Made by a program: the position numbers and the translations under genes | The notes under the pieces: model-generated | Seen by the model: the letters and a program-made list of their open reading frames with translations, nothing else | Told to the model about the DNA's origin: nothing | The model's database searches: none | From: Candidatus Bathyarchaeia archaeon | Lineage (GTDB): Archaea > Thermoproteota > Bathyarchaeia > Bathyarchaeales > Bathycorpusculaceae | Assembly (NCBI GenBank): GCA_049512075.1 | Contig: JBEKXL010000002.1 | Location: 64,001-128,000, forward strand | Length of the DNA stretch: 64,000 bases | Direction of reading: 5' to 3' | Shown here: positions 1 through 43,664 of the stretch, piece after piece | Layout: each line of letters opens with the position of its first letter | How positions within the stretch are numbered: position 1 is the stretch's first letter

Positions 1-94
1 AGCTAGTTAGACAATCACTAGCCATTCCTTCCCCTCTTAAGCGCACGCGCTCTTATCCAACGTTTTTCCAACGTATAGCGCGCACTAGAACAGG

Positions 95-817
95 TTAGGG
101 GTATTGTTGTCCATAGTGTTTTGCTAGTAGGGATAGGTCTGAGAGGCCGACTTTGCCGTCGCCGTTTATGTCCGCGTTGGCGTTCCACTTTGGACTGTCT
201 GGTGTGGTGCCGTAGGCTTTTGCGAGGATGGATAGATCAGACAGGCTGACTTTGAAGTCGCTTTTGATGTCGCCTGAAATTGTTACCGTTACAGTGCCCG
301 TGTAAGTGAAGTTGTTGGCTGCTTCATTGACTCCGTTTGGCTCGCAATAGGCACTCAGTGTGTAGTTGCCATAGGCGCAGTTTGAAGTGTTTCCACCACA
401 AACGAGGTTAACTGAAGATCCATTCAACAAGTTGAAAACATTGGTGTTGTTCAGAGTTGTTGCGTTAGCAGACAGAGTCAGCGTAACGTTTTCAGGGTTG
501 TCTCCAGCGTTGTTGATCGTAACGTTCATTGGAATTGGGTAACCTTGGCCAACTACGGTTTTGGAAGCTGTAAAACTTGCTACACAAGGCGCAGTAAGAT
601 TGACATTCTGACCTGCATCTATTTGCGAAGTCAAGACATCAGAGATTGAGCAGCCTTGCTGAGTCGTACTGAAACAGGTGACGGTGGCATTCAACACATT
701 GTCTCCAGCACTTATTGACAATCCTGAACTCGAAGGTGTGAGGGTGTAATTGAGGTAGCCTTGAGTTGTCGATGCATTCAAAAAGTACGTATATCCAACA
801 ATCTGACCAGATGCGTA
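95..817 (-). pseudogene. 5'-truncated surface protein: CARDB/Ig-like domain plus C-terminal dockerin-like domain
   Basis: C-terminal duplicated Ca-binding dockerin motifs (GDIKSDFKVSLSDL...ADINGDGKVGLSDL). The frame stays open upstream of 781 (YASGQIVGYTYF) up to the GC linker at 816-828. No signal peptide or plausible start. Confidence 0.75.
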
Positions 818-826
818 GCGCGCGCG

Positions 827-1792
827 CTGGAGAAAGGTTGCTTCGTTGTAAGGGACAAAGAACAGAATGTTCAGCGTTATCCTTTGTTCGAGAACGAGAT
901 AGGGGAAGTAGTTCTGAAAAGCGGCAATCTTGTTTCAACAGGAGCCTTAGCTTCTCTGGGATTCTGGGACATAGACGTTCTGATCGTTACCCAGAGGGGT
1001 CAGCCTGTCGCCATGTTGAAAGGCCTAGACGATGATAGCCACGTTAAAACTCGAATCAGTCAATATGAAGCCTCTGAGAATGGCAAGAGAGCCTCCGTCG
1101 CTAAGAAGATAGTAGCCTCTAGAATTGAAACCGAGAACCTTGTCCTAAGAAAATATGGCTTGCGACAACATGACCTACTTACAGTTAAGAGGGCAATTGA
1201 AGAAGTCAATTCTGGAAACATAACAACCAAGCTCATGGCAATTGAAGGCCATTGTTCAAAACAATACTTCAAACAGGTCTTCCAACTATTCCCCAGTTTC
1301 ATTCGAGTTGAGAATCGTAAAACCTTCAAGGCCTACGATGGACTCAACAATCTTTTCAACCTTGCCTACACCGTTCTGAAATGGAAAGTTTACAGAGCCA
1401 TAGTTAGGGCGAAACTTGAACCGTATCTGGGCTTCTTGCATTCTGAACAGTTCGGTAAACCTTCTCTGGTCTGCGATCTGATGGAGCCATATAGGTGCCT
1501 AATTGACGATTTTGTTATCCAATATTGCCAGAGCCTGAAAAGGAAAGATTTTGGTATGAAACACGAAGACTACTCTTCCAACAGAAAGGGAGAAAGGGAA
1601 TATTTGAACAAGGGTTTGGCAAAAGACATGATGAACAAGCTGAACTTCTTCTTTGAATCAACAATTCAAATACCTAGAGTGAAGCACGGCAACAAACAAA
1701 CCGTGGAGACTCTGATTAACGAAGAAACAATGCTATTCGCCAGATACCTGAGAGACGAGAAACCGAATTGGCATCCAAGGATCGTCAAGTAA
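827..1792 (+). CDS. cas1: Solo Cas1 endonuclease/integrase, probably missing its N-terminal ~15-20 residues
   Basis: Cas1 motifs MAIEG, NNLFNLAY, LEPYLGFLH, SLVCDLMEPYR (catalytic E/H/D-E retained). Similarity begins at EKGCFVV, immediately after the GC run; the ORF-track start at 761 overlaps the opposite gene. Confidence 0.85.
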   Translation: MEKGCFVVRDKEQNVQRYPLFENEIGEVVLKSGNLVSTGALASLGFWDIDVLIVTQRGQPVAMLKGLDDDSHVKTRISQYEASENGKRASVAKKIVASRIETENLVLRKYGLRQHDLLTVKRAIEEVNSGNITTKLMAIEGHCSKQYFKQVFQLFPSFIRVENRKTFKAYDGLNNLFNLAYTVLKWKVYRAIVRAKLEPYLGFLHSEQFGKPSLVCDLMEPYRCLIDDFVIQYCQSLKRKDFGMKHEDYSSNRKGEREYLNKGLAKDMMNKLNFFFESTIQIPRVKHGNKQTVETLINEETMLFARYLRDEKPNWHPRIVK

Positions 1793-1812
1793 GGCGCTAG
1801 GGACGAAATGGT

Positions 1813-2547
1813 CTACACAGTTTTCTTTTTCATCCACAGAAGCCCGATTATCATCCACACAGTAAAAGGTCTTTTACTATGCGTTCCTAACGCAAACCAT
1901 GTGTCATATTTCTCTTTCATGTTGTGATAGCACATTTCGGTTACTTTCTGTTTTGCAGTCTCCTTGTTCGGATAGTTGTTCCAAAGTACATGCGCCCCCC
2001 AGTCGAAGCATTCCATATAATGGGGATGCCTCTGACAAACTTCACAGGGTTCTTCGCAGTTCCATTTATAGAAAAGACCAACATTGCCATAAGGCTGCTT
2101 CCGGAAAACTCTGCCATTCAAGGTTAGCTGGACCACTTGCTTCTTACGTTCAATGATATCAAATCCGACGATCTGTGGTTTTACAAGGACGAGTGATCGT
2201 TTCTCGCTGATTGGCACGTCCAGCGACTTCTCGGACAAATCAACAAGAAAACGCCTTCGCTCTTCCCTGTCAGTTAGCTTCTTGCCCGATTGGATGATGG
2301 AGAAAGGTTCTATTTTTCTGCTTTCAATTCGCGGATCGCGATCGGGTTCTGTGGTCCTTACTTTAATAAAATCCCAACGGTGTATTTTTCTCGCAACACT
2401 ACCCAAACGCATCGGATAAAGGCGCCTCCATTCCTTTTTCTCATTTACACCGGCTGTGCAAACAAGGTAAGACCCATGTTTACCGCTCCAATTCGGGGCA
2501 GCTTCCACAAGTACCAGGACTGATTCATCTTGATAAACCGTAGGAAT
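1813..2547 (-). CDS. Uncharacterised protein with VCTAG...WRRLYP motif (OB-fold-like family often seen in defence loci)
   Basis: Motifs LVEAAP-x6-YLVCTAGV-x5-WRRLYP and C-terminal FALGTH...WMIIGL. The frame is open from 2547. Confidence 0.6.
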   Translation of the reverse strand: MPTVYQDESVLVLVEAAPNWSGKHGSYLVCTAGVNEKKEWRRLYPMRLGSVARKIHRWDFIKVRTTEPDRDPRIESRKIEPFSIIQSGKKLTDREERRRFLVDLSEKSLDVPISEKRSLVLVKPQIVGFDIIERKKQVVQLTLNGRVFRKQPYGNVGLFYKWNCEEPCEVCQRHPHYMECFDWGAHVLWNNYPNKETAKQKVTEMCYHNMKEKYDTWFALGTHSKRPFTVWMIIGLLWMKKKTV

Positions 2548-3552
2548 CTACTCCGTCCTCTGAAATCCTATCACACAGACGATTTCATTATCATCCCAGT
2601 TCTCATGAAGATTCCGCCAAACTTCCTTGAACTCCTTCAATGTATAGCCGCCTTCTTTCTTAGCATCGTTTTCTGTGAAATCTCCAAGTCGTTTCCTTTG
2701 GATGGAAGTTATGCGCAGATTAGCAAAATGGGGTTCCCAAACAGCAGCATGAATTGTCGCCCCAACAACAATTTTTGGATCTGGCAGTCCTTTCCGTGAG
2801 GTTTGAGTCTTTGTACCTTCAAGAATCGGCTGCATATGGGTGAGTCGAAAAGGCATTTCGTAAGGGGCCTCTACGACTTCTTTGAAGATTTGCTGTATTG
2901 ACTTTTCAGGTTCTTTTGCGGCTTTTGATATCACTTCTCTTGCCTGTCTTCGATAAATGGGTCTTCTTGCAATTTCCTTCGCTATCGACACTTGTTTCGA
3001 GGGTTCCTTTATCTGTCGAGTTATTGTTACGGCCGTGTCCCAATCGATTTTGCCCTGTTCACGAGGAACCCCGATCTTGGCAGCAGGTGCTATCATGACC
3101 TGCAATTCTCTAGGCGCGTTCACTAATTCAAGCCACGCATTAATCGTCCTATCAGAGACCCCTAACGTTTTGGCCACGGCGGCAGTATTGGGAAACTTTG
3201 AAGAGTATCTCTCCATAAGCTGCTTGCAACTATTGCCTTTTTCGACTGCATTCAAATCCGCGCGCTGAATATTCTCAATTAAGCTGAGTTCGATAACGTC
3301 CTCATCTGAATAGTCTCGTATCATTACAGGAACTCTTTCGAGTCTGGCCTTTTTTGCAGCCCTGTAGCGTCTTTCACCCACGACAACTTCGTAATGATCC
3401 CCCACAGGACGTATGATGATTGGTTGGAGCAAACCTTTTTCTTTTATGTTCTGGGCCAACAGATCGAGTTCTTCATTATCAAAATCCAATCTTGGATTGA
3501 AACGGTTCGGCCGAATTTTGTTCAATTCAATTTCTTTTATATCTCCAGCCAT
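2548..3552 (-). CDS. ParB/Srx N-terminal domain + HTH + C-terminal ASCH domain fusion
   Basis: GLLQPIIIR, VVVGERRYRA, LIENIQRADL (ParB); ILEGTKTQTSR and DAKKEGG (ASCH). Start placed at MAGDIKEI. Confidence 0.85.
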   Translation of the reverse strand: MAGDIKEIELNKIRPNRFNPRLDFDNEELDLLAQNIKEKGLLQPIIIRPVGDHYEVVVGERRYRAAKKARLERVPVMIRDYSDEDVIELSLIENIQRADLNAVEKGNSCKQLMERYSSKFPNTAAVAKTLGVSDRTINAWLELVNAPRELQVMIAPAAKIGVPREQGKIDWDTAVTITRQIKEPSKQVSIAKEIARRPIYRRQAREVISKAAKEPEKSIQQIFKEVVEAPYEMPFRLTHMQPILEGTKTQTSRKGLPDPKIVVGATIHAAVWEPHFANLRITSIQRKRLGDFTENDAKKEGGYTLKEFKEVWRNLHENWDDNEIVCVIGFQRTE

Positions 3553-3695
3553 CCCAATCACTCTCCCATGATGCAAATTCCACAACCGACTTAACTATGA
3601 CTGCCTCGCCGGATTTATAAGACTTGCAGGGCGCACCATCGCGCACGTGATGCGTGAGTTTTTTATCCCAGCACTTTTGATAGTGTAAACGTTGG

Positions 3696-5786
3696 TTGGT
3701 CAAAATGGAGATATCGCAGCTGAGAGAGTTGCAAAACCATTTCGAAGTTGCTCGAGCAAGCACCCAAGAAGCCCAACAATTGTATAAAGAATGTGAGGAC
3801 CTTACTTCGCAGTTCCAGCAGAAGTTTCGTCGAGATAAAATAGGTTCAATGACTCTCCCAGAGTACGTTGTAGGTCACGAAAATAAGGATTCCTTTTGCT
3901 ACTGGCTGCAATTCAAAACTAGTAAGGTTGGAGAAATCTTCGTTGGTGGCGCAGCTTTAGCGTTTGGAGTCTATTATAGCAAGAAAGACAACGCCTACAG
4001 GGTTTTTGACGGAAGTAAAGTTGGCGTAGTGCCTGACGATGAGGCATCTAAGCAATTGGAAAGGATTAAGGCCGGATTAGTTGAACTGTTGAGTTTTGCT
4101 GAAAAGAAAGCTTTTGCAGATATGATAAGGGTCTCAAAACAATTACTTCTCGATTACCAAGTCGTAGGGAAAATTCTAACTCTTTATTTTCCTGAAAAAT
4201 ACTTGGGTGTCTTTTCGAATGGACATGTGAACGAATTCCTTGAAAGTTTTGGAAAACTAGACGATAAGACAAAAGATTCACACATCTTTGAAAGAAGATC
4301 GATACTTCTGGAATTCAAAGAGAACGATGAAATAATGAAGAATTGGACAAACAAGAAGTATGTTGATTTTCTTTATAAGGAAATACTCAAAACGCATGTG
4401 CCTGCATCCTATTTCGTTTTGCGGACAGGCAGCGAAGAATACTCAGATCAGCCGGAATCAAAATACAATTTCAAGGAATCTATCCCGGGTTCTGTCCAGC
4501 TTCGAGTAGCTGAAAACAATGGCTGGTTCGTCTATCTCGAGAAAGATGTCTTCTATGGAACTGGCAGAATTGGCAAAATTTCATCTTATGAAAAAGATGG
4601 CGTAACGTACTACGATGCCGAAATACTGGATTACATTAAGATAGATCCTGTAAAGTTCGACACCATTAAAGACAGACTAAGCTTCAAATCCATAGGCCAA
4701 CCTGGCATCCAAAGAATATCTGAGGCTGACTTCAAAATCATTGCAAAAAGCCCAAAAATTCCGGCCCTTACTCTTCACCCAATTGAAGATATCGTCAAAT
4801 ATATAAAATCAAAAGGATTCTTCTTTCCTATAGAGACTATAATCAATTATCACACATGTCTGTTGACGAAGCCTTTCGTCATTCTGTCAGGAATTACAGG
4901 AACAGGCAAGACCAAACTAGCAGAACTTTATGCTAATGGTCTATACGGAATTGAAAAGGATAATCCATACTACAGAAAAGTAGCTGTCCAATCAAACTGG
5001 AGCGACAGCAAACCACTTCTGGGTTATTACAACCCGTTCATAGGAGCGTATCACACGACTCCTTTCCTTCAGTTTGTTCTGAAAGCAATTGAAGACTGCG
5101 ACAGCTGCGGCCTCAACAACGGGGGGAAATGTTCAGATTCCACCAAATGCAGCTCAAAATATTTCGTATGCTTAGATGAAATGAACCTCGCCCACGTAGA
5201 ATATTACTTCGCAGATTTTCTAAGCGCAATGGAGACAGAAAACAAGACGATAAATCTTCACCCTGCAGGTACAAAAACTGAAGAAGGAACGTCAATACCT
5301 AGTAAGATTCGAATACCTGATAATTTCTACGTCATCGGCACCGTCAATATTGACGAGACAACCAAGGAGTTTAGTCCCAAAGTACTAGACCGGGCCAACA
5401 CAATTGAGCTAGACATCGTAGACCTAGAGAAGTGGAAAGAAATCCAGCTGAGCTTAGGCATCAAAATAAACGAGGAAGCATTCAAGGTCATAAACGAAAT
5501 CCACTCTATACTGAGAAAATATAGTCTGCACTTCGGCTACAGAGTTTGCAACGAAATAATCAAGTATATCGAAAACTCGAAACTGAGCCTCTACGAATCT
5601 CTAGACCTTGAGATAAAACAAAAAATACTACCAAAACTAAGTGGAGACGACAATCCCCGACTCAGAAAAAGTCTTGAAGAACTCAACCAATATCTCACAG
5701 GTAGACAGTGCGAACAGTCGCGAACCAAAGTCGCAAACATGCTTGAAAAATTGAATCAGTATGGTTTCACATCCTTCTATGACTAG
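3696..5786 (+). CDS. McrB-like AAA+ GTPase (type IV restriction) with N-terminal recognition domains
   Basis: Walker A GITGTGKT, Walker B CLDEMNLA, McrB signature GTVNIDETT...KVLDRAN; EVE/PUA-like segment at about aa 238-350. Confidence 0.85.
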   Translation: MVKMEISQLRELQNHFEVARASTQEAQQLYKECEDLTSQFQQKFRRDKIGSMTLPEYVVGHENKDSFCYWLQFKTSKVGEIFVGGAALAFGVYYSKKDNAYRVFDGSKVGVVPDDEASKQLERIKAGLVELLSFAEKKAFADMIRVSKQLLLDYQVVGKILTLYFPEKYLGVFSNGHVNEFLESFGKLDDKTKDSHIFERRSILLEFKENDEIMKNWTNKKYVDFLYKEILKTHVPASYFVLRTGSEEYSDQPESKYNFKESIPGSVQLRVAENNGWFVYLEKDVFYGTGRIGKISSYEKDGVTYYDAEILDYIKIDPVKFDTIKDRLSFKSIGQPGIQRISEADFKIIAKSPKIPALTLHPIEDIVKYIKSKGFFFPIETIINYHTCLLTKPFVILSGITGTGKTKLAELYANGLYGIEKDNPYYRKVAVQSNWSDSKPLLGYYNPFIGAYHTTPFLQFVLKAIEDCDSCGLNNGGKCSDSTKCSSKYFVCLDEMNLAHVEYYFADFLSAMETENKTINLHPAGTKTEEGTSIPSKIRIPDNFYVIGTVNIDETTKEFSPKVLDRANTIELDIVDLEKWKEIQLSLGIKINEEAFKVINEIHSILRKYSLHFGYRVCNEIIKYIENSKLSLYESLDLEIKQKILPKLSGDDNPRLRKSLEELNQYLTGRQCEQSRTKVANMLEKLNQYGFTSFYD

Positions 5787-5810
5787 CACCCATTAGAGGG
5801 CAACGCTTGC

Positions 5811-7421
5811 ATGGAAGACAAAAAACTCATCTTCAAGATAGACGGGGTAGAGAAGGACCTATCCGAAATCATAGAAGTCGACGAGCTTCAAAAATGCGTT
5901 TTCTCAATAGAACTTGACCAGGATGTGCCCCTTTCACTCTTCATAAATCAAAAAGAGGTTGAAATGGATCAAATCCTTAAGAAAGAAGCTCACGCGGGAT
6001 ATTACTACCGCTCAAGATTGCCTTATCCCTTTGATGAAATTGGGATTTATGTTCTTAAGCTGGTCACAGATGGAAGGCAAATAACTCAAAAGATTAGAGC
6101 TAGGCCGATAAAGATCTCCATGGAAGACTACCGAGTTATTTTGGAGGATATTAGGAAAGAGACTTACAACTTGGTTTTCTCCGTTTTTGGACAGAGTTCA
6201 GAAGATATCCGGTTGGCCCATCTCTCTGGGCAAACAAGCTTCATAGAATACATTTCATTTTTCAGAAGAAATTTCAGCGATTTCTGCGAGGTATTCAGAA
6301 GGATTGAGAAGGACCCCAACTGCGATCTAATTAAAAGGGAAAGAATAGCCGAGATATACGATACGAACATTTTCGATGATATAATCGAGTTTGAGAAGAC
6401 AGAAGACGCTATTTCTCCAATTGAGCGAAAACTTGGCTTCTACCCGAAGCGAGTTTCACTTCTTGAGAGTGCAAGATCCTTCAATGTCTATGAAAATAGG
6501 CTACTCAAACATTTCTTAGGACTTATCATCAACAAGACAGCCTTTTTGGAATCGGCACTGATTGAGGAAATAAAGACAACACAAGATAACAGTGATTTTT
6601 TTGCCGGTTCGAATGAAAGGATAAAGAAGTTGGAGGAGCTCAAGAAGGAATGTGGAAGATACGAAAAAGTCGCTCAGAACATGTGGAAAAGAAACTTTCT
6701 TGATAACGTTTCCAAGATGAATGTCGTGAAAACATCAATGGTTCTGCAAAAAGAACCGAGGTACCGATCTTTTTACAAGCTGTATCAAGATTTCAGAAAA
6801 AATTCTTTGGTAGAAATCAATTCTGATTATTTCTATATACCCATCAGACGGGCTTGGCAAGTATATGAGATCTGGGCGTTTCTGAAGGTCGCAGAGGTCC
6901 TCGTTAGAAAAGGGTTCGTTCCTCAACAAGGGTTGTTCAATACTTCAGAAAGAATGAGCCATGACGTCAAAAATGTTAATTTCAATTTTAATCTGAAAGA
7001 GAATATTCCTCTACTAGAACTGAAGGGAAAAAACCTTGCGGCAAGAGTGTACTACCAGCGGTCTTATGCAGTTGCTTTCATCAGTGGCTACGGGTCTACA
7101 GATCCTTATGAAAAGAAACCAGACATAGCAATCGAGTTTTTCACAAATAATAACCCAATCCCTGAAATAGTCATTCTTGACGCCAAATACAAAATAGTCG
7201 AAGAAAGACCTCCGCAAAGTACCCTGAAAGATATGAGCTATTATGTTGAAACTATCTGCGATGAGGATAAAAACAGAATCGTGAAGAGTGCGCACGCAAT
7301 ATACCCGGGCAAGTACACAGAAAGCTACGGAAGATGCGGTTATGTCGGGCTTATTCCAAAAGGAGACATGTCCAAATTCGACAAAGATATCGAAAAACTA
7401 ATCTCAGCATATTTGCAATGA
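5811..7421 (+). CDS. McrC-like DUF2357 + PD-(D/E)xK nuclease
   Basis: NVYENRLLKHF, VYEIW, KPDI...ILDAKYK; lies directly downstream of the McrB-like gene. Confidence 0.8.
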   Translation: MEDKKLIFKIDGVEKDLSEIIEVDELQKCVFSIELDQDVPLSLFINQKEVEMDQILKKEAHAGYYYRSRLPYPFDEIGIYVLKLVTDGRQITQKIRARPIKISMEDYRVILEDIRKETYNLVFSVFGQSSEDIRLAHLSGQTSFIEYISFFRRNFSDFCEVFRRIEKDPNCDLIKRERIAEIYDTNIFDDIIEFEKTEDAISPIERKLGFYPKRVSLLESARSFNVYENRLLKHFLGLIINKTAFLESALIEEIKTTQDNSDFFAGSNERIKKLEELKKECGRYEKVAQNMWKRNFLDNVSKMNVVKTSMVLQKEPRYRSFYKLYQDFRKNSLVEINSDYFYIPIRRAWQVYEIWAFLKVAEVLVRKGFVPQQGLFNTSERMSHDVKNVNFNFNLKENIPLLELKGKNLAARVYYQRSYAVAFISGYGSTDPYEKKPDIAIEFFTNNNPIPEIVILDAKYKIVEERPPQSTLKDMSYYVETICDEDKNRIVKSAHAIYPGKYTESYGRCGYVGLIPKGDMSKFDKDIEKLISAYLQ

Positions 7422-7571
7422 CATAAAACTTGTTCAATATTGTCTAAGAGAATGAAACCAATGTGACGTGCACATTTTTGTGAAGGTTAGTTTTTACTAA
7501 AACTGCACTACTCGTCACACGCGCAACATTGTCCACGGGGTAATGAGTTTCGAATTCTGCTCTAGCGCGGG

Positions 7572-10500
7572 CTAAATAGACTCTTCCTCAGTATGTCTGC
7601 ATCCTTTAGTGCCATAATTAACGCAGCCAAAGAAAGGTCGCCCATATTTGTCTTGCCTTGGGACAAGGTAACCATCTTCGCATTTCGGGCATGCTTTCGC
7701 CTGAAAAGAGCATTTATCATTGGAGCACAGATATTTTGAGTTATCCTTGTATAGAAAACCGTTGCCACCTTCTGAGTAATCCTCTCTGCATTTTGGACAA
7801 CTCCTCGGAACATAGCTGCAATACGGGCTGTTGCTACATTCGTACCATCCGCGCATTTCATTCCTAACAATAATTCCAGTTGTGCAGACTGGACAATTAA
7901 TACTCCTTTTCAGCTTCTGCCCAGTTGTATTAATCTCATAACCGTTATTTTCTATCTCAGTGACAAAAGTTGAAACATTGAATGGTTCATCAACAACTAA
8001 GTAGACATGCTTTCGAGCTCTTGTGATTGCCACATAGAATAGTCGTCTTTCTTCGGCGTTCGGGAAATTTTCACTTTTGGCCTTAACCAAATCCAATACA
8101 GGGTCATTTTCGATTTGGCAAGGAAAACCGCGTTCTCCGCTTCTTAACCCTATTACTATGACAGAATGGACTGTGCGTCCTTTTGACTTATGTATTGTCG
8201 TGTACTCTATCTCAAGCTTAGGATTATTCAATATTAATTCGTCGATATTACTTGGTTTTCCTATTTCTTCATACCTGTTTAATATCAAGATTTTTTCTTT
8301 TTCTTGGGCGTCTCGATTTATTTCTTGAATTATTCTTTCGAGTGCGGATTCCGTTTTTTCTTTGACAATGGTCACAGCAGGTTTATTGTCTTTCTTTTTG
8401 CTTATGATTTGTTTGCGTATCTGGTATGAGTTTTCAAGGATAAATCTGGTTGAAAAGTCACACAATTTGTCGCTGAATCTGTGGGTCTCCTGTACTAATC
8501 GTATTTCGCTGGGACCAAAATATCTTTCGAAATGAGTCATAATAGAGATATCGCTACCTGCGAACCGATTGATTGACTGCCAATCATCACCCACGCAGAA
8601 GAGTTTGGAGTTATTTTGGTTAAGCAAGGCTTTTAGAAACCTGTATCTACTTTGCGAAATGTCCTGAAACTCATCAACTAATACATATTGGAATGGAGAT
8701 ACGTACTTGTTCTGTTCAATCAAGTTGGTAGCTTTGTTGATCATGTCGTTGAAGTCAATTTCGCCATTTTGCCAAAGACATTCTTCATAGTCTTTGTAAA
8801 TGACTGAGAATATATCTAGGAAAGCTTTTGTTCTCGTATCATCTGGACTAATTTCGCTTTTCAGTGTCTCGAGACTTTTTCCACTTGACTTGAACAAGTT
8901 TAGGAAGGTAGACAGAAGCGAGGCTAGAGAATTGACTTTGCCCATTTCGTTCAATTTATCGAAAATTTGATTACTTGGGAGTGGAGCAAATACTACTCCT
9001 CGTCTTAAAAGTTCCGTTTCGAGCTTTTTCAACAGGTTGCCCGCCTGCCTTTCGTAGGTGAAGGTTTTGATCAATGTCGTTTCGTTCTTCTCATGCAGGG
9101 CAACTTTCCAATTCATGTCTGCTATGTACTTTTCCCGTGGAACCCAGGGCGCTGTTCCTCCATTTTCATCTATGCCGAAATGCTCTATGTAAATTCCTGA
9201 TTCTGGAAGGGTGAAATCGGGTTTGTATTGACCGTGCTCTGCATCCGATGTTTTTTCTTTATAGGGGTGTTCGTAGATGTAATTTACTCCGTTTACGTAG
9301 AGGAAATTGGCAATTTCGCATTCTTCAAGACTCTCCACCCTATGCCCTTGCAGTGCGCGGGTTCCGTTATCCCTTAGGTATTGATAGTATTCTCCCAGAG
9401 AGTTGAACTCGAATATGCTCCTATACATTTGGAAATTCCAAAGGAAGTAATCATTAATGAGTCTGGCAAAATTCTCTTCTTTCATTCTATTTCTTATCAA
9501 TTCAAGAATTCTTGATTTGGAGGCAAGCTCATCTTTTGCTAAGGGGGATAGGGTTGGCATGTCCTTTTTTGACTTGCCAATTATTCCACGTCCTAAGCTG
9601 TGAAACGTCTTCACTGTAAACTTGATACCAGTTTTATTGTTGACTTTCTTTTCATTCTCCTTAGCAACAGACTTGTTGAAAGCTATGAGTAGTATGTTTT
9701 CTGGAGCTGCCAGTCCTTTTGACACTATATAGAACGCTTTTCCTAAGAGGGTTGTAGATTTTCCAGTTCCTGCGCCTGCAACTACAAGGTTATTGGCTTC
9801 GTCTACGACAATTGCTCTTTTTTGTTCTTCAGTCAAAGTATTTCCATCGATTTTTTCAAATAACTCGGATTTTAGAATCTCTTCTTCAACATAACTCTTA
9901 TTACGCTCTCCTAAGAGCCGCTCACCATCGTTATGGATTGATACAACTAAGTCAAGCGAATCCTGAAAATCGATTTCTGTGACACCTTTTGCCTTACATT
10001 GTTCGGCGATGGGGACTAGGTTTCTCCATTGTTCTTTCCACGACTTCAGTTCTCTCTTGGAGAAGTATTGTTGCCTATTATAGAGTGATGTGAAGTCTTT
10101 CTCAGCTTGCAAAAATGTTTCTCCAAGTTTCATTGTTTTCTGTTTTAGTATGTTTCTTTCAAGCTTCTCGTTATAGCCAATAACAAACTGCCTTGACTGC
10201 GCTATTTCACTAAGTGTTGAAGAAATGAGTTCTGAATCAAGAAAGTTCAAGGGCTTCAGGTATTCCATATCCGCTTTGAATGTCCCAAAAAGATTCAGTA
10301 ATTTCTCCTCTTGTTCGTTTGACAAGAATTCGTGATGGGCCTCGATGGCTTTAAGTTGCTGTCTTTGAACCTCCAAAGTGTCCCTGATGCGAGATTCAAC
10401 GTTCTTTGTCAGAAGAGCTTTCTGCGTCTCATATTGCAGTATGTGCTGATCGACGTCTCTATAAATGAAACGGCCAATTCCAATTTTCTTCAAGATTCTG

Positions 10501-10592
10501 CGAATACGCTTAGCTCTCATTAGTTTAACGATTTGCCGGTGTAGATTTTTCAACTCTTCAACTGCCGATCGCAACGGCATCGTTTCAGTCAC
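7572..10592 (-). CDS. UvrD/DNA helicase IV-like SF1 helicase with C-terminal topoisomerase-type Zn ribbons
   Basis: AGAGTGKS, VLVDEFQD, VGDDWQSI, TIHKSKG, EERRLFYVAITRA; internal KPDF...IEHFG nuclease-like insert; repeated CPxC motifs. Confidence 0.9.
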   Translation of the reverse strand: MTETMPLRSAVEELKNLHRQIVKLMRAKRIRRILKKIGIGRFIYRDVDQHILQYETQKALLTKNVESRIRDTLEVQRQQLKAIEAHHEFLSNEQEEKLLNLFGTFKADMEYLKPLNFLDSELISSTLSEIAQSRQFVIGYNEKLERNILKQKTMKLGETFLQAEKDFTSLYNRQQYFSKRELKSWKEQWRNLVPIAEQCKAKGVTEIDFQDSLDLVVSIHNDGERLLGERNKSYVEEEILKSELFEKIDGNTLTEEQKRAIVVDEANNLVVAGAGTGKSTTLLGKAFYIVSKGLAAPENILLIAFNKSVAKENEKKVNNKTGIKFTVKTFHSLGRGIIGKSKKDMPTLSPLAKDELASKSRILELIRNRMKEENFARLINDYFLWNFQMYRSIFEFNSLGEYYQYLRDNGTRALQGHRVESLEECEIANFLYVNGVNYIYEHPYKEKTSDAEHGQYKPDFTLPESGIYIEHFGIDENGGTAPWVPREKYIADMNWKVALHEKNETTLIKTFTYERQAGNLLKKLETELLRRGVVFAPLPSNQIFDKLNEMGKVNSLASLLSTFLNLFKSSGKSLETLKSEISPDDTRTKAFLDIFSVIYKDYEECLWQNGEIDFNDMINKATNLIEQNKYVSPFQYVLVDEFQDISQSRYRFLKALLNQNNSKLFCVGDDWQSINRFAGSDISIMTHFERYFGPSEIRLVQETHRFSDKLCDFSTRFILENSYQIRKQIISKKKDNKPAVTIVKEKTESALERIIQEINRDAQEKEKILILNRYEEIGKPSNIDELILNNPKLEIEYTTIHKSKGRTVHSVIVIGLRSGERGFPCQIENDPVLDLVKAKSENFPNAEERRLFYVAITRARKHVYLVVDEPFNVSTFVTEIENNGYEINTTGQKLKRSINCPVCTTGIIVRNEMRGWYECSNSPYCSYVPRSCPKCREDYSEGGNGFLYKDNSKYLCSNDKCSFQAKACPKCEDGYLVPRQDKYGRPFFGCVNYGTKGCRHTEEESI

Positions 10593-10899
10593 TGATTTTC
10601 AGGCCACCGCGATCCCCATTACATTTCTTATCTTATATTGAGTTTTCCAAATTAGCGTTAGTTAGCCCGCGCGCTAGCTCCACGCTAACGTACTGTTTCC
10701 TTGCTAACTAACTAACCCCCTACTGTGATCTCCATTATTGTTTATTTTTGGCCGTGTTTTGCAAAATTAGCCTAGTTAGCTGGTTAGCAAAGGATCAATA
10801 CTATACGAAGATGTATAGCACAACCTAAGCTAACTTGCTAACTAACCGTAAGGGTGGCAAAATCAGTGACCCGTAGAGTAGGTGACCATGGCATTGGTT

Positions 10900-10920
10900 G
10901 GTTGGGGTAAAGTTTACCCC
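10900..10920. repeat. Palindromic GGTTGGGGTAAAGTTTACCCC site, copy 1
   Basis: 17-bp palindrome at 10904-10920; second copy at 15490-15510. Confidence 0.75.
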
Positions 10921-11229
10921 TTAGAACGCACGCACGCTCTCTCGCTCTCTACTACTCTCTGCTTCTTACTCGCACAACACCATGCCCTTTACCTTCCAAC
11001 CTACCTACATATACATACCTACCTAGTGACACTCGCACGCTGTGCGAGTGTGATCATATAAAACGGGGGGAGAGGAGAGACACACGAGCACAAACACGCA
11101 CAAGAGAGAGACAAGACTATCTACGGCGGCTACTAGGTGTAGTTGTTTTCTGCTTTTGTGTGCTGCTACTACTATTAGTTAACCTAGTACACCTTGTTTT
11201 CTGACGCTCAAGCAAGCGTTGATTCTGAA

Positions 11230-11395
11230 TAGCGCGCTAGCGTGTTCCTAAATTCCCTTTTCTGGGCGTGACGAGTTGGTTCATGTCCTACAGACGATAC
11301 TTCTCGCATCAATAGTCACACGGTCATCCACGAACCAAGCGAGCCTATAACAAAAACCAGCTCGCGAATGAATTTAGGAACAGGCATGCGCGCTA
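11230..11395. mobile_element. 166-bp MITE-like element with 26-bp imperfect terminal inverted repeats
   Basis: TAGCGCGCTAGCGTGTTCCTAAATTC (11230-11255) matches the reverse complement of 11370-11395 (TAGCGCGCATGCCTGTTCCTAAATTC) at 23/26; no ORF inside. Confidence 0.55.
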
Positions 11396-11554
11396 GACAG
11401 CGGATTCTTCGACAATCTAGTAACCACTGACGACTTGAACGGCATAGACAACGACAAGGTGATCAGCATCATTCAGGACATCAAGAGCGATAGTCTGAAG
11501 GTTTCAAAAAGCGACAAATTCTCGAAACATCACTATGAGCTCTGCACAAATTAA
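11396..11554 (+). pseudogene. Orphan 3' gene fragment (52 codons)
   Basis: Protein-like open frame DSGFFDNLVTTDDLNG...ELCTN* begins at GCGCGCTAG; in-frame stop at 11375 and no start codon before the fragment. Confidence 0.35.
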
Positions 11555-11602
11555 GGGTCGAAACTCGCCCTAGTCAACCGCCTGAAACGCCTAGCGCGCG
11601 CA

Positions 11603-14600
11603 CTACTGTTGCGAGTGCTCTTGAGAGTACGAGAACCACCCAGTTGTTTTCGCTAGCCGGACTTTCAGTTCACAACCCTGCGTGCTCAGAACCCTCAGAT
11701 TGAGTTTTGTAGCCTTCACTTGGTCCTCTGTTCCAGCCATGAGTAACGCAAGCAATGCGTAGATCTTGCGGTATTCCAGACCAACAATGCCTTCCATGTA
11801 TTCTTGATCGTCTAGTGGAAACTTCAATTGATCCTTCCCCTCAAACGCTTCTATGAACCTCTCCACTTCCATTTTTGTCAGTTCGATCGGTGTCAGTGTT
11901 TCGCGATCCTTAAAATTACCGAAACTGAAAAGGGAATCACTTGGACTTGCGAACCTGAAGCAGTCAGGTTTCAGAAGCCTCAAATATGCGTTGTTCATGT
12001 CCATCATGAAGCGCATAGATTTTTGCAGGAAACTGTAAACATAATCTTGCTCAGGTGCTCCTATCGAATCTTCCTTCATATGCGCCACTCTTATATTGAA
12101 GTCAGCGAATGTGGCAAGATAACTGTCCAATTCTTGTTCACTCCCCTTAAAAATGGACGTGAATAAACAATTCCAGTTATGTCGTCCTTCCGGGCTACCA
12201 TGCATTCCTGTCATCAAATTCCTGTATTGCCCTCGATTCAATTGCTGAAACTCATTGCGGGACACTGAAAAACCTTTGGATGTCTCCTGTTCAATGTTCT
12301 TGGCTATGTACTTTCTGGAGTCTGCGTCAAGAAATCTCATTCTGTTCTCAAAGCTGCCATACAATATCGTGAAGACATTGTACAGAAAGGTCCGAAGTTT
12401 TCTCTCTGTTACCCTTGTCAATCTGCCAGCGACTTCGTCATATCGGTTCTCTCTCCACAAATCTCTACATTCATGAAGCAATCTTATCTCGTCATTTTTC
12501 AGACCAACTAAGGGTATGTGCAGCTGTTGGGATTTCTCATATTCTTCCTTAAAGAAGTTGAAGACCAATGGGAAAGCTTCTCGATAGATTGACACAACCT
12601 GGGCCACGAGTCTCCTTTTGTCTTCATATTCCAAAGCAACTGCCCTTGTGAACTGCTGTATAACTTCTGGTGACCACCAAAAATCCTTCCAGAAGGACAG
12701 AATCTGCAAATCACTACCTCCGATAGATCTTGGGATTTTCTCATATGCTTGATATGTAGTGGTCAGCTTTGCAAGCGAAGTCTTGCATCTTTCTACAAGT
12801 GCATTTGCTTCTTCTTCACTGTCTAGGTATTTGTAACCTGACTCTATTATTTCACAATGAAGATTTCGGGCACTCTCTAGATGCTCACGAACCAAATCGT
12901 GTTTCATCTTGGATAGCATAGCGTCAAGACTCTGGATTTCTTCACTTCTTAGTTTCAGTTTTCTTTTCTCCGCTTGAGATTCTACAAAGTACAGTCTTGG
13001 CAAATAATCCTCCAAAGACAAATTGTAACGTCGTATTATCTGCCCGTTCACATGTAGCAATTCTTTCGAGATTCTCCAGACTAGTCTGCCCTCATCCACT
13101 TTCCGTATGAGACCTGCACGGGCGAGTTGCTGAAGAAAAGGTGCCTCTTGTTCTCGAATCTCAGAGTCTGGCAAGCTTTTCCTCTCATATATGGACACGA
13201 GTACTTCAAAGCATCGTCTTTTTTGAGCCGGCTTGAGTCCTTTAGCTCCATACAAAAGCTTATTGATTTGCCTTCTTGCCGCGTCGTCCTTCTCCAAAAC
13301 TGATTTTATCTCTTCTAGTGTGCTTACAGGAATCTTGACGGGATTAGCACTGAGCGCATCAAAATGATTAGCCTCGAATTCATTGATGACCTCACGCATT
13401 ATTCTTCTGAATGTTATTTCCTGTCCATTGTACTGCAGTCCCTTGTAGATCTTCTCAATGAAACGACGTTCCAGCTGACGAGGATTATCAGGGTTTTTTG
13501 CAAACGCTCGCAATCTCCTGTTAATGGCGTCGTGTGCAATATCCATCTTCAGCGGAGGTATGCGTTCTAGTGCATGCACAGAGCCAGAGAAAAGTGGGTC
13601 GTTTGTCATCTTCTTCTCCCATTCAAGTGAACCAGCAACAAAAAAGGCAATGTTCAATTTGGATTCCCTACGCAGTTTCGATCCAAGCACCTGAAGGTGG
13701 CTCATAAATCTCATCGCCTTTTCCAGATCACCTTTGTGTAAATCATCGATGAAAACTACGAAACCTTTTGCGAAACGCTCAATCTTCTGATCAGCCAGCG
13801 CAATAAGAAGCTGTGCAATCGCCTTCTCATCATCTGAAGCATCTAAGGATGGCAGACCCCTACCCGTCAGGACAGAATACAAACGAATTAGTTCCGTGTT
13901 CAGTTGCCGTCTGAACTCAAAAACCAACTCGCGGACCTCAAACTCTCCTCCAAGCTGGATGTAAATTGGGTATATCCTGCAATCATATAGCAAAGGCTCG
14001 ACATATTCAAAGAAAGTTGTCTTTCCAGAACCAAATTGGCCAAAGACAACGATATTTCTGAAAAGGTCTTTCGGGTTCTTTTCAATCAGGGTCACATACT
14101 TGTTGAAAATCTCCGTCTTGCATACAACCTGATCATACAGGGCACGGTCAATTTCCTCAAGCCCTTCTAGTCGGTGAAAAGGGTCTTCCCTCAGACCTAG
14201 CTTATTCCACCAAGGCACATATGGTATGTCTAGATCTGAGGACTCTCCGTTTTCAGGTATTTCAGGAACCATGTAGTCTTCTTCATCTAGAATTGATGGA
14301 ACGGAAAAATATTGTTCTGTCCTTTCCGCAATCTCTTGATCCAATTCTTGGAGTTCTTCTTTCTTTTCTTGAATGACCTCCTCTCTAGCTTGTTTTTTAA
14401 ATTCCTCTTTCAGTTTCTCTCCATATTCTGCCTCTTTGATTTTTGACACGTCGACTAAAGGTTCGTTCTTCTCAAGTTTGAGGCGTAGCCTCTCACGATA
14501 ATAGGTCTTATTTGACACTTTATCTCTGAAAAAAGGCAGGGCCAGAATACTTTCGAGGTCACTCTCATTTCCAATCTGGGCGCTGTTAATCATTCCCTCC

Positions 14601-14767
14601 AGAATTTCTGCGGCAATGTCAGAGTCTTTGGGGACGCTCCGCTCTCTAGCGAATTTCAAGAAGAATTCCTGTTTGAGCCTTTTGAATACCTCAGCGGGAA
14701 AAGGATCGACTCGGAACATTGCCGAATTTCGCTTTATGAACAAACGAATGGCTTCGCGCCTGTCCAA
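11603..14767 (-). CDS. Large P-loop (STAND/AAA-like) NTPase with wHTH and possible Swt1/HEPN-like C-terminal region
   Basis: LGLREDPF pre-motif, Walker A GQFGSGKT, Walker B VVFIDD; LQQLARAGLIRK wHTH-like; ERKLRTFL...NIRVAH Swt1-like. Confidence 0.6.
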   Translation of the reverse strand: MDRREAIRLFIKRNSAMFRVDPFPAEVFKRLKQEFFLKFARERSVPKDSDIAAEILEGMINSAQIGNESDLESILALPFFRDKVSNKTYYRERLRLKLEKNEPLVDVSKIKEAEYGEKLKEEFKKQAREEVIQEKKEELQELDQEIAERTEQYFSVPSILDEEDYMVPEIPENGESSDLDIPYVPWWNKLGLREDPFHRLEGLEEIDRALYDQVVCKTEIFNKYVTLIEKNPKDLFRNIVVFGQFGSGKTTFFEYVEPLLYDCRIYPIYIQLGGEFEVRELVFEFRRQLNTELIRLYSVLTGRGLPSLDASDDEKAIAQLLIALADQKIERFAKGFVVFIDDLHKGDLEKAMRFMSHLQVLGSKLRRESKLNIAFFVAGSLEWEKKMTNDPLFSGSVHALERIPPLKMDIAHDAINRRLRAFAKNPDNPRQLERRFIEKIYKGLQYNGQEITFRRIMREVINEFEANHFDALSANPVKIPVSTLEEIKSVLEKDDAARRQINKLLYGAKGLKPAQKRRCFEVLVSIYERKSLPDSEIREQEAPFLQQLARAGLIRKVDEGRLVWRISKELLHVNGQIIRRYNLSLEDYLPRLYFVESQAEKRKLKLRSEEIQSLDAMLSKMKHDLVREHLESARNLHCEIIESGYKYLDSEEEANALVERCKTSLAKLTTTYQAYEKIPRSIGGSDLQILSFWKDFWWSPEVIQQFTRAVALEYEDKRRLVAQVVSIYREAFPLVFNFFKEEYEKSQQLHIPLVGLKNDEIRLLHECRDLWRENRYDEVAGRLTRVTERKLRTFLYNVFTILYGSFENRMRFLDADSRKYIAKNIEQETSKGFSVSRNEFQQLNRGQYRNLMTGMHGSPEGRHNWNCLFTSIFKGSEQELDSYLATFADFNIRVAHMKEDSIGAPEQDYVYSFLQKSMRFMMDMNNAYLRLLKPDCFRFASPSDSLFSFGNFKDRETLTPIELTKMEVERFIEAFEGKDQLKFPLDDQEYMEGIVGLEYRKIYALLALLMAGTEDQVKATKLNLRVLSTQGCELKVRLAKTTGWFSYSQEHSQQ

Positions 14768-15110
14768 GATATTCGCATCCTTAACTCATCAAAAGTTATA
14801 TCCGTTGTCGAATTTAAGGTTGTGGCAAGTGTGACCTGGAGCGCGCAGGCGTGCTAAACTCCGAAGAGTTATCATAACCGTATGAAGGATGTTTTATTTA
14901 TTTACGACCAAAACAACAACCCGTAAGAGAATCAGAGAAGATGTAAGGATTCGAATCCTCACCTTATACCAGAATCAATGTTGAGACCTGACTTGCAACC
15001 TAACTGAATTAAACTTGCGTGGGCTTTCATTTCTTAGTAAATTACAAGCAACAGTCGCGCGCGCTAGGCAATATTGCTATGAGAAAAAAGAAGGGGCAGA
15101 TATTTTTGTT

Positions 15111-15416
15111 CTATTTCAGGAAGAGTTTCGCGCTTTCTTCAAGAGTCATTACTGGAAAAACTTCATTGTTGTGGAGCGCCCCCCAAGCCATCATTTCAGG
15201 TTCCATCGAAAGTTTCATCAATGCCTCGAAGCTTGCATCCCACAAAAATACAAAGCGGTGATTTCCCCCATCATGCCATCCCCCGACAAGCTTAACACCG
15301 TGCTTCTTTGTTAGTTTATCCAGTTTTGCGCTGAGGTTGCTACTTGCCTTCATCGCTTTCTCATTGTTCAGCGGACAACTTTCAGGCGAATGTCTTGAAA
15401 TCTGCATAAAGAGCAT
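15111..15416 (-). CDS. Small ferredoxin-like-fold protein (DUF3303/GYD-like)
   Basis: HSPESCP motif, GVKLVGGW, terminal PVMTLEE. Confidence 0.55.
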   Translation of the reverse strand: MLFMQISRHSPESCPLNNEKAMKASSNLSAKLDKLTKKHGVKLVGGWHDGGNHRFVFLWDASFEALMKLSMEPEMMAWGALHNNEVFPVMTLEESAKLFLK

Positions 15417-15489
15417 AATACAACCTTCTAGGACAACTGTTTGCTTGTCTAAGTATATATAATGTTCGCATCGCGTCTTTGTGTGTGTG

Positions 15490-15510
15490 GGGGTTAAGTT
15501 TACCCCAACC
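15490..15510. repeat. Palindromic GGGGTTAAGTTTACCCCAACC site, copy 2
   Basis: 19/21 match to the reverse complement of 10900-10920. Confidence 0.75.
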
Positions 15511-15678
15511 CAAATTCTTAATCCACCACTCTCTTACACATACACTCACTCAGCGCGCACAGAAAGAGTCTCTAAGGCCAGCTAGGGCAGTAAAGTATCG
15601 AAAAGTAGTGCCTAAATATATATATGCTTGTAGCTTAAGAATGGCTCTGTAGTTAGTCAGTTGCAGGTTGGCTTGCAC

Positions 15679-16071
15679 ATGACCAAACCAGTTCACGTTG
15701 GCGAGTTGAGAGTCGGCGGGTACATGGTAATCGACGGCGAACCATGTCATATTGTTGACATAGACAAGTCGAAGCCGGGAAAGCACGGTTCAGCCAAGGC
15801 TAGAATAACGGCCGTAGGTGTTTGGGATGGGGTTAAGAGAAGCTTTGTGAAGCCTGTTGATCTTGGCGCGGAGGTGCCAATAATCGATAAGCGTACGGGC
15901 CAAGTGTTTGCAGTGAACCCGACCGGTGTTCAAATTATGGACCTAGAGACTTACGAGTACTTTGATGCTCCCTATCCGCAAGAAGAAGAGCTGAAGGCAA
16001 AACTGGCGCCCGGCGTGGAAATTGAGTATTGGCGGATACTCGGAAAAATGAAGATCATGAGAGCAAAATAG
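15679..16071 (+). CDS. eif5a: Translation factor aIF5A
   Basis: Hypusine motif SKPGKHGSAKAR. Confidence 0.97.
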   Translation: MTKPVHVGELRVGGYMVIDGEPCHIVDIDKSKPGKHGSAKARITAVGVWDGVKRSFVKPVDLGAEVPIIDKRTGQVFAVNPTGVQIMDLETYEYFDAPYPQEEELKAKLAPGVEIEYWRILGKMKIMRAK

Positions 16072-16127
16072 ATTGAAACTTCGGGTTTCCGTATTGCATT
16101 AATGATCCCTGTTCTCTGATGATGGCT

Positions 16128-16334
16128 TTATTCCCACCATTTCCACTTAAGTGCACTGAACAAGCTGTAGAGAGCCAGCAGGATTATTCCCCAACTTAAC
16201 GCGATTCCTGCGATTCTGAGCAAATCATTTAGTGTGTTGTTGTAGATTATGTAACCGCTTATTCCACACAGCCCGACTAGAACGAGAATGAAAATCGCGA
16301 TATGGATTGCTCTTTCGCCTGCCAGATTCCTCAC
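16128..16334 (-). CDS. Small two-TM membrane protein
   Basis: Two hydrophobic segments; no overlap with neighbouring genes. Confidence 0.55.
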   Translation of the reverse strand: MRNLAGERAIHIAIFILVLVGLCGISGYIIYNNTLNDLLRIAGIALSWGIILLALYSLFSALKWKWWE

Positions 16335-16507
16335 CCACTAAACTGTTCTAGTTCGTATCGTCTTTTGTTGTTAAAAGACTTTCGTCAAGGTTTATTTCAG
16401 CGTCTTACATATCGTGGTTTGAGGCCGATGATGCTAGAAGAGCCGTCGGATTTGTGAAGATAGTTAGGTGCTGAGGCTTCATTGCTGTTTCTGACGGAGA
16501 TTGTGTG

Positions 16508-16930: not shown

Positions 16931-16944
16931 CGGTCATCTCCTCC

Positions 16945-17691: not shown

Positions 17692-17808
17692 ATTTATCCA
17701 CTCAAACCCCTCTAGAAGAAGTGTGAAATCTAAAAAGCTTACGGAAGCAGGGCCTGAAGAACGGAATAGCTATTAATGGCATGAAACGATGTAAATCTGG
17801 AGAAAAAC

Positions 17809-19143: not shown

Positions 19144-19172
19144 CAGTGCCAGATTCTCAGAAGGCATGTTGA

Positions 19173-20507: not shown

Positions 20508-20517
20508 GAGAAGTGTT

Positions 20518-20817: not shown

Positions 20818-20818
20818 A

Positions 20819-21157: not shown

Positions 21158-21208
21158 GCTGGTCGATGCTAACTATTTTAAGCAATAAGAGACTAAATAG
21201 AGGAAATT

Positions 21209-21784: not shown

Positions 21785-21810
21785 CCCAATCCATCGTCTA
21801 GCGGGGTAGA

Positions 21811-23233: not shown

Positions 23234-23274
23234 AACGTGCAGGCCTATCAAAAATTGACAAGAAATGAAGAGGG

Positions 23275-30172: not shown

Positions 30173-30272
30173 ATTAGCGCGCGCTAATCGATTTGTTACG
30201 TTTGATGTTTCTCCCAACATTCCAAAAAGCTATCACAGTTTGCTACTGTTACGTTTTGGAGTTGTGAAGAAG
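30173..30272. repeat. Dispersed ~100-bp repeat, copy A (starts with perfect 16-bp palindrome ATTAGCGCGCGCTAAT)
   Basis: Aligns with 34151-34250; contains two TGTTACGTTT boxes. Confidence 0.85.
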
Positions 30273-43055: not shown

Positions 43056-43664
43056 AGGATCGTCAGTATTAGTATTGTGTAAGAGTTCAAGTCCTTTTCC
43101 CAGGCATCGAAAAGCTAGAAAAGAGCTTCTTTTCGGAGGTTCGGAACATCGCTCATCCTCCTTTTTGGCTTTGGAGCTTGATTCAGCAGCGTAAAAAGCA
43201 TGGGAAAAATCGAAAAGCTCAAAATGAGGAAAAACGTCGTGCACATCGAGCAGATTTTGTTCCTTTTTGGGAATGGAGCATAATGCTCTTCGAAAAACTG
43301 TGAGAAAACAGTCAGTTGAAAACCTTGATAACTTTGTTATAATAAAAAACAAGGAATAGTCCATCCGATTTCCAGAAATTCGACTCATTCCTTAGAGAAC
43401 TGGTTTTTGTGGACAACTGCAAAAAAGGGCCAGAAAACACCATCAGTTATATTGTCTTTTTGAAAATTCTCGAAAAAGCTGACTGTTACGTCATTGTTAC
43501 GCCGAAATGTTACAAAAGCATGGTATTCTCCGTATATTCCATGTTTGCGCGCGCTTGAACTTCTTTAGCGCTGCGCGCGTACTGTTCGCATGGAACTGGT
43601 TAACCCGCGACAGACGCTGGCAAAACGTGTTTGTTCTTCATAAAAGAAGGGGAGAAAGGAGGGC

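Follow-up and report, generated by a model that had tools for sequence, protein, structure and literature searches.

The stretch analysed here, hereafter the window, comprises 64,000 nucleotides (nt) of a Candidatus Bathyarchaeia archaeon (assembly GCA_049512075.1, contig JBEKXL010000002.1) and contains, at 812-828, a true DNA joint in which the 3' remnants of two unrelated genes, cas1 and a gene encoding a secreted dockerin protein, lie head-to-head with a filler between them that is ancestral to neither. The filler contains an exact 12-mer palindrome, AGCGCGCGCGCT (817-828), which belongs to a class of short runs of alternating G and C. The best reading, held with moderate confidence, is that a fixed self-complementary filler is written into non-homologous joints and that the two remnants were joined in this way. 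The genome of the window (G000) has 2.73 Mb in 86 contigs, given below as C1, C2 and so on, and the window corresponds to C2:64001-128000; relatives are numbered from G001. The placement in Bathyarchaeia agrees with the names on the closest Cas1 homologues, and the DNA was found in sequencing runs from peat and wetland.

Two gene remnants joined head-to-head

On the plus strand, the open reading frame (ORF) that gene callers read at 761-1792 matches the Cas_Cas1 (PF01867) and TIGR00287 profiles with 166.4 bits (cut-off 22.3) and 168.9 bits (cut-off 71.7), respectively. Both matches start at residue 23, which corresponds to nt 827, and at profile position 12-13, and the N-terminal domain is incomplete. 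An intact paralogue of 341 amino acids, starting with MKTKVLKIALDGRGSYLGMEKGCF, is present in the same genome (C1:348834-349859), and the DNA homology to it (C1:348874-349804, 81% identity) begins at window nt 828. At the break the paralogue reads TTGGGAA followed directly by TGGAG, without a GC run, which is the outcome of a check on intact cas1 homologues proposed in an earlier, sequence-only reading of this DNA. Along 321 aligned codons the two copies show 80.4% amino acid identity, a non-synonymous rate (dN) of 0.125, a synonymous rate (dS) of 0.99 and a dN/dS of 0.126. Judged from these values, the two cas1 copies diverged as working genes, and no further damage followed from the truncation.

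On the minus strand, the frame shows a dockerin type I domain (PF00404, 33.4 bits, cut-off 22.9), no start codon above 781 and neither a signal peptide nor a hydrophobic N-terminus. The same-genus genome G001 holds an orthologue with 82% DNA identity over 89-811, which encodes 1033 amino acids with propeller repeats and a signal-like N-terminus (judged by eye). About 795 of the 1033 codons are gone from the window gene, and with them most of the protein, including its signal peptide and beta-propeller repeats. The missing 5' part was sought across the G000 assembly (99.76% complete) and was not found, the best other matches being paralogues with 40-62% identity; a signal-like stretch is visible by eye in 11 of 13 paralogue ORFs. 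At the break the G001 orthologue reads GAGAATGAG followed directly by TCTGGTCAG, also without a GC run. Since neither the cas1 paralogue nor the dockerin orthologue has a GC run at its break, the run in the window is junction material.

The sequence-only reading had described both genes as decapitated, the plus-strand frame as Cas1-like from 827 and the minus-strand frame as lacking a start and a signal peptide, all of which holds: in comparison to the paralogue, cas1 lacks 18 codons and one base, and the dockerin gene has the losses given above. It had followed the dockerin sequence up to 817 and had left only the 12 base pairs (bp) of the palindrome between the genes. The dockerin identity and the presence of the 12-mer stand, but homology stops at 811, the two residues "YA" are filler, and the non-gene DNA occupies 16 nt (812-827), T828 being common to the filler and cas1. 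The filler at this joint reads TGCGT plus AGCGCGCGCGC. With up to two mismatches, AGCGCGCGCGCT shows 13 matches in the window, compared with 1.53 expected, and none of 100 shuffles reaches 13. The same reading had also proposed that a rearrangement removed both 5' ends and that the run is the junction: both ends are lost and the run is junction material, and a single rearrangement is one of the possible routes to this state.

The other end of the dockerin remnant also has degenerate runs (40-51 and 77-86), so a mosaic of captured pieces is as likely at this joint as one in-place deletion. Runs therefore flank the remnant on both sides, as they do with small captured fragments elsewhere in the genome. 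Both genes lost their promoters and starts at this locus and are in all likelihood dead, left as remnants within a mosaic island. A promoter and terminator scan of 1-2600, of bacterial type and with archaeal signals outside its coverage, gave nothing above shuffles, and an Rfam search of the whole window gave no match. Beside the outer degenerate run, a 38-nt sequence (1-38) has copies with 87-95% identity on C11 (twice), C1 and C12, and is also present in G004 and G002; this repeat ends at the run 40-51, and loose contig ends at 35/38 represent other continuations.

Logan contigs bridge the joint with 0 differences in four sequencing runs under four study codes: they are 649 nt long in X2-X4 (232-880) and 584 nt long in X5 (297-880), and they show the depth of the neighbouring DNA. 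The cas1 paralogue appears as a loose contig end at 828, with similar depth. The support across the joint that the sequence-only reading had proposed to look for is thus present, in contigs and not in raw reads. That the joint is an assembly or library artefact is hardly credible. The genome was assembled from a metagenome and the support is of the kind just mentioned, but the contigs are independent and carry the joint at full depth with the paralogue beside it, the 12-nt repeat is shorter than assembler words, runs gain substitutions between species like real DNA, and contig ends are not enriched for runs (14 sites, 11 expected). The 343-residue ORF that spans the junction is on record on four contigs (P0012 is identical). 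Gene callers read through such joints, and the recorded "Cas1" of 343 amino acids opens with 22 codons of antisense and linker.

A class of GC runs in the genome and its relatives

Runs were defined as alternating G and C over at least 8 bases. G000 contains 581 of them, 575 with a length of 8-10 bases, and their consensus is (T)A-GCGCGCGC-T(A). The run-length histogram falls about four-fold per base up to 7 bases (195), and then shows a discrete excess, with 284, 186 and 105 runs at 8, 9 and 10 bases, respectively, and three at 11. An A precedes the run in 334 of 580 cases and a T follows it in 338 of 580. Past this flanking A/T the flanks are random and non-complementary (complementarity of 22-27% from flank position 2 outward), and no extended palindrome or hairpin was found around the runs in G000. 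Just 26 of the 1160 flanks resemble another flank, and for this reason no ordinary transposon family owns the run ends. The octamer GCGCGCGC shows 646 occurrences in G000, compared with about 27 expected from composition, and the other GC octamers show 9-35. By ORF-based gene models, 120 of the 581 runs are genic, compared with 80% of random positions; intergenic runs amount to about 75-79%, and the value for random positions is about 18-20%.

The 10-mer AGCGCGCGCT is found 115 times in G000 and 29, 87, 69 and 98 times in G001, G002, G003 and G004, which are the four genomes of the same genus. G021, from a different genus, has 63 copies, and each of the 35 other relatives has 0-11; the counts of the reversed control are 0-7. 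The GC unit is a class largely confined to this Bathyarchaeia genus.

Runs at breakpoints

The 565 testable sites of G000 were compared with 565 motif-free intergenic positions of the same genome as controls. Paralogous DNA lies within 400 nt of 339 sites and of 130 controls. The paralogue match ends at the run in 107 sites and crosses it in two, whereas the corresponding numbers for the controls are 13 and 22, and in 37 of 115 site-sides the partner ends far within a predicted gene. Runs flank a 102-nt piece from the interior of a P-type ATPase gene on both sides; the source of this piece, to which it is 98% identical, has none. A 149-nt gene piece is likewise bounded by runs. The unit is found bordering inserted DNA as well as small captured fragments.

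In the comparison with G002, which is about 95% identical in shared blocks (1.585 of 2.327 Mb compared), 89 of the 565 sites abut a synteny break and a continuous match runs across 67, against 5 and 230 of the controls. The density of runs is 6.24 per 100 kb inside the shared blocks and 26.25 outside, about four times higher, and 74 runs, against 13 controls, lie within 30 nt of the 438 block edges. Among 158 collinear differences of at least 30 nt (78 simple indels and 80 replacements), 16 simple indels show a run in the short allele, with long alleles of 43-10,922 nt, and eight show one at one border of the long allele; 41 replacements show a run at one border at least. The run is a major but not the sole signature of structural change in these genomes. 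The genome-wide breakpoint statistics and this comparison support the proposal of the sequence-only reading that the linker is either made at breakpoints or used for them.

In the window, all runs of at least 8 bases are within two variable islands or at their borders, and the core blocks 15591-30175 and 46666-64000 contain none. The left border of a 13.4-kb island is a run, and four relatives continue past 30171-30175 without any run. A minus-strand gene at 28.9-30.18 kb, conserved in four relatives, is severed from its first codons by this island, and 18 nt between two runs at the right border (43555-43572) are a remnant of the 5' end of the split core gene, the match to the relatives being judged by eye. 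The 4.5-kb and 3.1-kb insertions at 16078-16111 do not show clean borders.

Direction and fate of the events

Left flank, run and right flank in one genome (G000 in 12 cases, G002 in six) are matched in 18 collinear cases by the same flanks with a segment of 89-2379 nt between them in the other. About 10 of the 18 segments do not have a GC run of 6 or more bases, and in the alleles that bear the segment long ORFs cross the borders, for example ORFs of 254, 311, 364 and 367 amino acids. At C13:24738, the outgroup G004 has both flanks and the 776-nt segment as one stretch with 84% identity; since G004 carries the segment unbroken, the ACCGCGCGCGT of G000 is a derived deletion plus filler. At G002:C18:10362 the unit is present in G002 and absent from G000 and G004, and because both lack it, this is a pure insertion with about 10-12 nt gained and 2-3 nt lost. 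At C16:27814 the outgroup shows a spacer of like length, with a sequence too diverged for polarity. Bare indels are also found at about eight of the spanned sites (8-12 nt) and at one more with 5 nt, and two spanned sites have small replacements.

No target duplication was seen at the polarised, collinear or spanned run events. The unit enters whole and without duplication; the accompanying loss ranges from 0 to thousands of bases and has arbitrary limits. The fillers follow (T)A-GCGCGCGC-T(A) apart from 0-3 trimmed or extra bases. The other genome has the run intact at 26 of 67 and 26 of 44 spanned sites, and most others differ by 1-3 substitutions. After insertion, the decay of the runs looks close to the neutral expectation; the runs are not conserved.

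Interpretation and alternatives

Under the reading of a filler written into joints, the unit would enter in three ways: as a pure insertion of 8-12 nt, as a substitute for deleted DNA of 43 nt to about 11 kb, and at the borders of inserted DNA. Most likely, double-strand breaks would be repaired by end joining with variable end loss, and a fixed palindromic unit would be added to the ends or would bridge them. Because the unit pairs with itself, any two ends carrying it would be joinable. The fillers are as a ligated or templated linker would leave them, and the units would then decay by ordinary point mutation. In a more tentative form, which we consider possible, the genus may have a joining pathway that writes a fixed self-complementary linker of 10-12 nt, (T)AGCGCGCGCT(A), into non-homologous joints, any two ends, broken or foreign, being made mutually sticky, and each genome would carry readable scars at many deletions, insertions and fragment captures; a new kind of polymerase or transferase would be responsible. 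If so, these genomes log their own rearrangement history in a sequence tag, and illegitimate recombination could be counted directly, by rate and by type, in an uncultured archaeon. An end-joining chemistry that adds a defined self-pairing linker would be without described counterpart and a possible tool, and it would bear on the assembly of gene cassettes and fragments into variable islands.

Several points weigh against this reading. At the joint itself, the ancestral arrangement was sought and not found (no cas1 is present in the 1.2 kb that precede the dockerin orthologue in G001), one deletion, several events and fragment capture all fit, and the support comes from assembled contigs, not raw reads. 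No run of at least 8 bases is present at the borders of 54 of the 78 simple indels and of 39 of the 80 replacements. Polarity is given by one outgroup case of each kind, the outgroup searches for three further cases being empty or one-sided, and gene positions are those of ORF-based models. Ku was not found in the motif-rich G001, G003 (93% complete) and G021 (98%), with 29, 69 and 63 copies of AGCGCGCGCT, respectively, and was found in the motif-poor G010, G020 and G040. To our knowledge, known end joining adds no constant sequence.

An unlikely alternative is that the palindrome is a minimal non-autonomous mobile element, a "mini-REP" of 10-12 bp after the repetitive extragenic palindromic (REP) sequences, which is moved by an enzyme encoded elsewhere and provokes adjacent deletions, the copy at 817-828 being one with DNA lost on both sides. 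It accounts for whole units inserted at new sites and for the restriction to a lineage, and in three comparisons of G000 with G002 (C3:154940, C21:34245 and C23:24226) the longer allele consists of an internal run with extra DNA on both sides and the shorter one keeps the run alone. G000 also contains genes of the Y1 (HUH) transposases (five matches), whose transposition makes no target duplication. However, Y1_Tnp was not found in the motif-rich G003, G004 and G021, the runs lack a conserved cleavage tetranucleotide, a REP-size hairpin is excluded by the absence of anything palindromic past the flanking A/T, the flanks share almost no sequence (26 of 1160, as above), and each of the approximately 10 deleted segments without a run would need an insertion followed by two deletions.

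Improbable, too, is that the run is the core site of an integron-like cassette recombination, with the genes and pieces between runs as cassettes and the joint as a cassette boundary. Some islands do show a run between nearly every pair of genes (C1:336-338 kb and C1:355-362 kb), runs are nearer to the upstream stop codon (median 106 nt) than to the next start codon (153 nt), alleles of a run alone and of run, segment and run are found at C33:10338, G002 C2:114086 and G002 C15:14606, and a repeat of about 280 nt with at least six copies has runs at both ends. But empty sites in relatives lack a run, as seen for cas1 and the dockerin gene, for the 30175 border and in about 10 collinear cases; the runs cut genes at arbitrary codons, pure insertions of the unit occur without cargo, and no attC-size partner structure was found at the runs. 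Least probable of these three, and very doubtful, is a selected intergenic signal (terminator, insulator, protein-binding site or DNA-uptake tag), of which the copy at the joint would be an old intergenic leftover. The intergenic excess of runs fits it, convergent gene ends being the most enriched (about five times the background), and lineage-specific over-representation is typical of uptake sequences and of the cyanobacterial palindrome HIP1; against it, conservation between the 95%-identical genomes does not exceed the neutral expectation, runs are about four times denser outside shared blocks, they arise by insertion and not by substitution and replace coding DNA, a terminator hairpin cannot form from a stem of 4-5 pairs, and the bacterial-type scan showed no signal at this locus.

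Candidate enzymes

For a filler written into joints, one candidate enzyme is a primase-polymerase that would make a unit-length GC oligomer. G000 contains at C16:5124-8191 an operon of a LigD-type polymerase (PolDom, primase-polymerase), Ku and an ATP-dependent ligase; Ku (C16:6054-6590) was identified with Pfam (140.7 bits), and the flanking polymerase and ligase were named by eye. This operon is a complete end-joining set, which is rare in archaea, and Ku is present in six of the 41 genomes searched. None of the enzyme families tested, Ku, solo Cas1, Y1 transposase and C5 methylase, tracks the motif across genomes. Ku as the agent fits the motif density only partly. Cas1 as a sufficient agent was rejected, the same family being full-length in the motif-free G008, G012 and G030. 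The Y1 transposase does not fit the motif density across genomes: PF01797 was found in G000, G001, G002 and the motif-poor G014 and G020, and not in G003, G004 and G021. The C5 methyltransferase PF00145 was not found in G000.

Comparison with known systems

No published match to joints with GC units was found in open-access text, including GCGCGCGC in archaeal intergenic DNA, and the open-access literature gave nothing relevant on Bathyarchaeia palindromes with genomic islands and deletion. Copies of HIP1, the cyanobacterial palindrome GCGATCGC, reportedly lie at the ends of a deletion in the smt locus of Synechococcus. The passages on HIP1 in PMC5861425 and PMC4390886 describe a short, G+C-rich perfect palindrome, lineage-specific, over-represented and with a function long unknown, which is abundant within genes, conserved by selection and tied to orphan methyltransferases. 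The GC unit resembles HIP1 as a short perfect palindrome, lineage-specific and many-fold over-represented, and differs from it in being mostly intergenic and clustered in variable DNA, in its near-neutral decay, in its entry by insertion and in the absence of a PF00145 match in G000.

REP sequences and bacterial interspersed mosaic elements (BIME) form imperfect hairpins 20-40 nt long, contain a conserved tetranucleotide and co-occur with the RAYT (Y1/HUH) enzyme that moves them; they are present in hundreds of copies without target duplication. The GC runs are likewise extragenic palindromes dispersed in hundreds of copies and lacking target duplication, but the unit has 10-12 nt, nothing is conserved past it, and Y1_Tnp was not found in three of the six motif-rich genomes. 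Unlike the ends of transposons and of miniature inverted-repeat transposable elements, the runs show no conserved subterminal sequence (the flank clustering given above) and no target-site duplication was seen.

Fillers of end joining and N/P nucleotides (Ku/LigD and V(D)J coding joints) share with the runs a short untemplated insert, variable flank loss and the lack of duplication. N additions by terminal transferase are G+C-rich, and known fillers vary in sequence or copy nearby DNA, whereas one fixed palindrome of defined length is found here. Integron arrays are similar in showing genes each followed by a site-like repeat, variable regions and occasional gene fragments; their attC sites, however, are structured, have 55-141 nt and are served by IntI, and the repeat described here has 10-12 nt and occurs at empty sites and within broken genes as well. 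Telomere fusions made by ResT of Borrelia and protelomerase sites show palindromic junctions of at least 40 nt with an alternating C/G centre and TA flanks. Fossil ResT fusions resemble the runs in having such a junction where two ends fused, and differ in their length, no extended symmetry being present around the runs.

Other features of the window and related repeats

Table 1. Positions of the remnants, the filler and the GC runs in the window.
Feature	Position	Strand	Description
Degenerate copy of the GC palindrome, AGCGCACGCGCT	40..51	none	abuts the 38-nt repeat 1-38
Degenerate copy, AGCGCGCACT	77..86	none	3 nt past the end of G001 homology (89), 8 nt after the dockerin stop codon
3' remnant of the secreted dockerin-protein gene	89..811 (coding 95-811)	-	residues 796-1033 of the 1033-residue orthologue
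Junction filler, TGCGTAGCGCGCGCGC	812..827	none	homologous to neither gene; contains AGCGCGCGCGCT (817-828)
ORF as read by gene callers	761..1792	+	343 amino acids, TTG start; first 22 codons are antisense dockerin and GC run
cas1 remnant	828..1792	+	lacks codons 1-18 and the A of codon 19; the remaining 321 codons are open
GC run	11594..11601	none	inside the variable island 1-15590
GC run	30177..30184	none	left border of the 13.4-kb island; block common to four same-genus genomes ends at 30171-30175
GC run	43547..43554	none	right border of the 13.4-kb island; followed by the 18-nt remnant and the run 43573-43579
Further GC runs of at least 8 bases	15056-15064, 30334-30342, 34115-34122, 34153-34161	none	variable islands

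The cas1 of the window is solo: its neighbours do not include cas2 or cas4, no CRISPR array is present, and the window holds only two small tandem repeats. Its neighbours in the window are one gene of unrecognised kind and a gene encoding a ParB-N/HTH protein fused to an ASCH domain (2548-3585), and the intact paralogue is likewise solo. Beside the ParB-ASCH gene, the region 3696-7421 encodes a protein of 696 amino acids with a P-loop motif (seen by eye) and a partner of 536 amino acids; this neighbourhood, which adjoins the joint, looks like a defence island. The solo Cas1 family shows full copies at C1:348834-349859 and C43:7-1020, several full copies and many short pieces per Bathyarchaeia genome, and 2145 homologues in public data, a pattern closer to that of a transposase-like gene in a mobile element than to that of an adaptation module. 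Three further cas1 pieces cut at runs were found in G000 (C1:361088-361339, C7:37403-37570 and C22:36813-36896).

Three types of longer repeat were also observed. A 165-nt element in the window (11230-11397) shows GCGCGC at both ends and has the appearance of a miniature mobile element; G002 contains at least six copies of it, with 95-97% identity. The repeat at C1:371004-371154, of about 147-280 nt, has more than 20 copies, including copies on C3, C4, C5, C6, C8, C13 and C26, and contains internal direct repeats of GTAATGTCAGATGTAAT; GC runs bound several of the copies. An element of 1.5 kb in G002 (G002:C5, about 172121-173605) shows inverted ends beginning with GGTTCTGTTAACTTGTC and a 9-bp target duplication, with no GC run involved. 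This element carries a gene encoding a small secreted protein, and its end sequence recurs in G002 beside the 30175 breakpoint.

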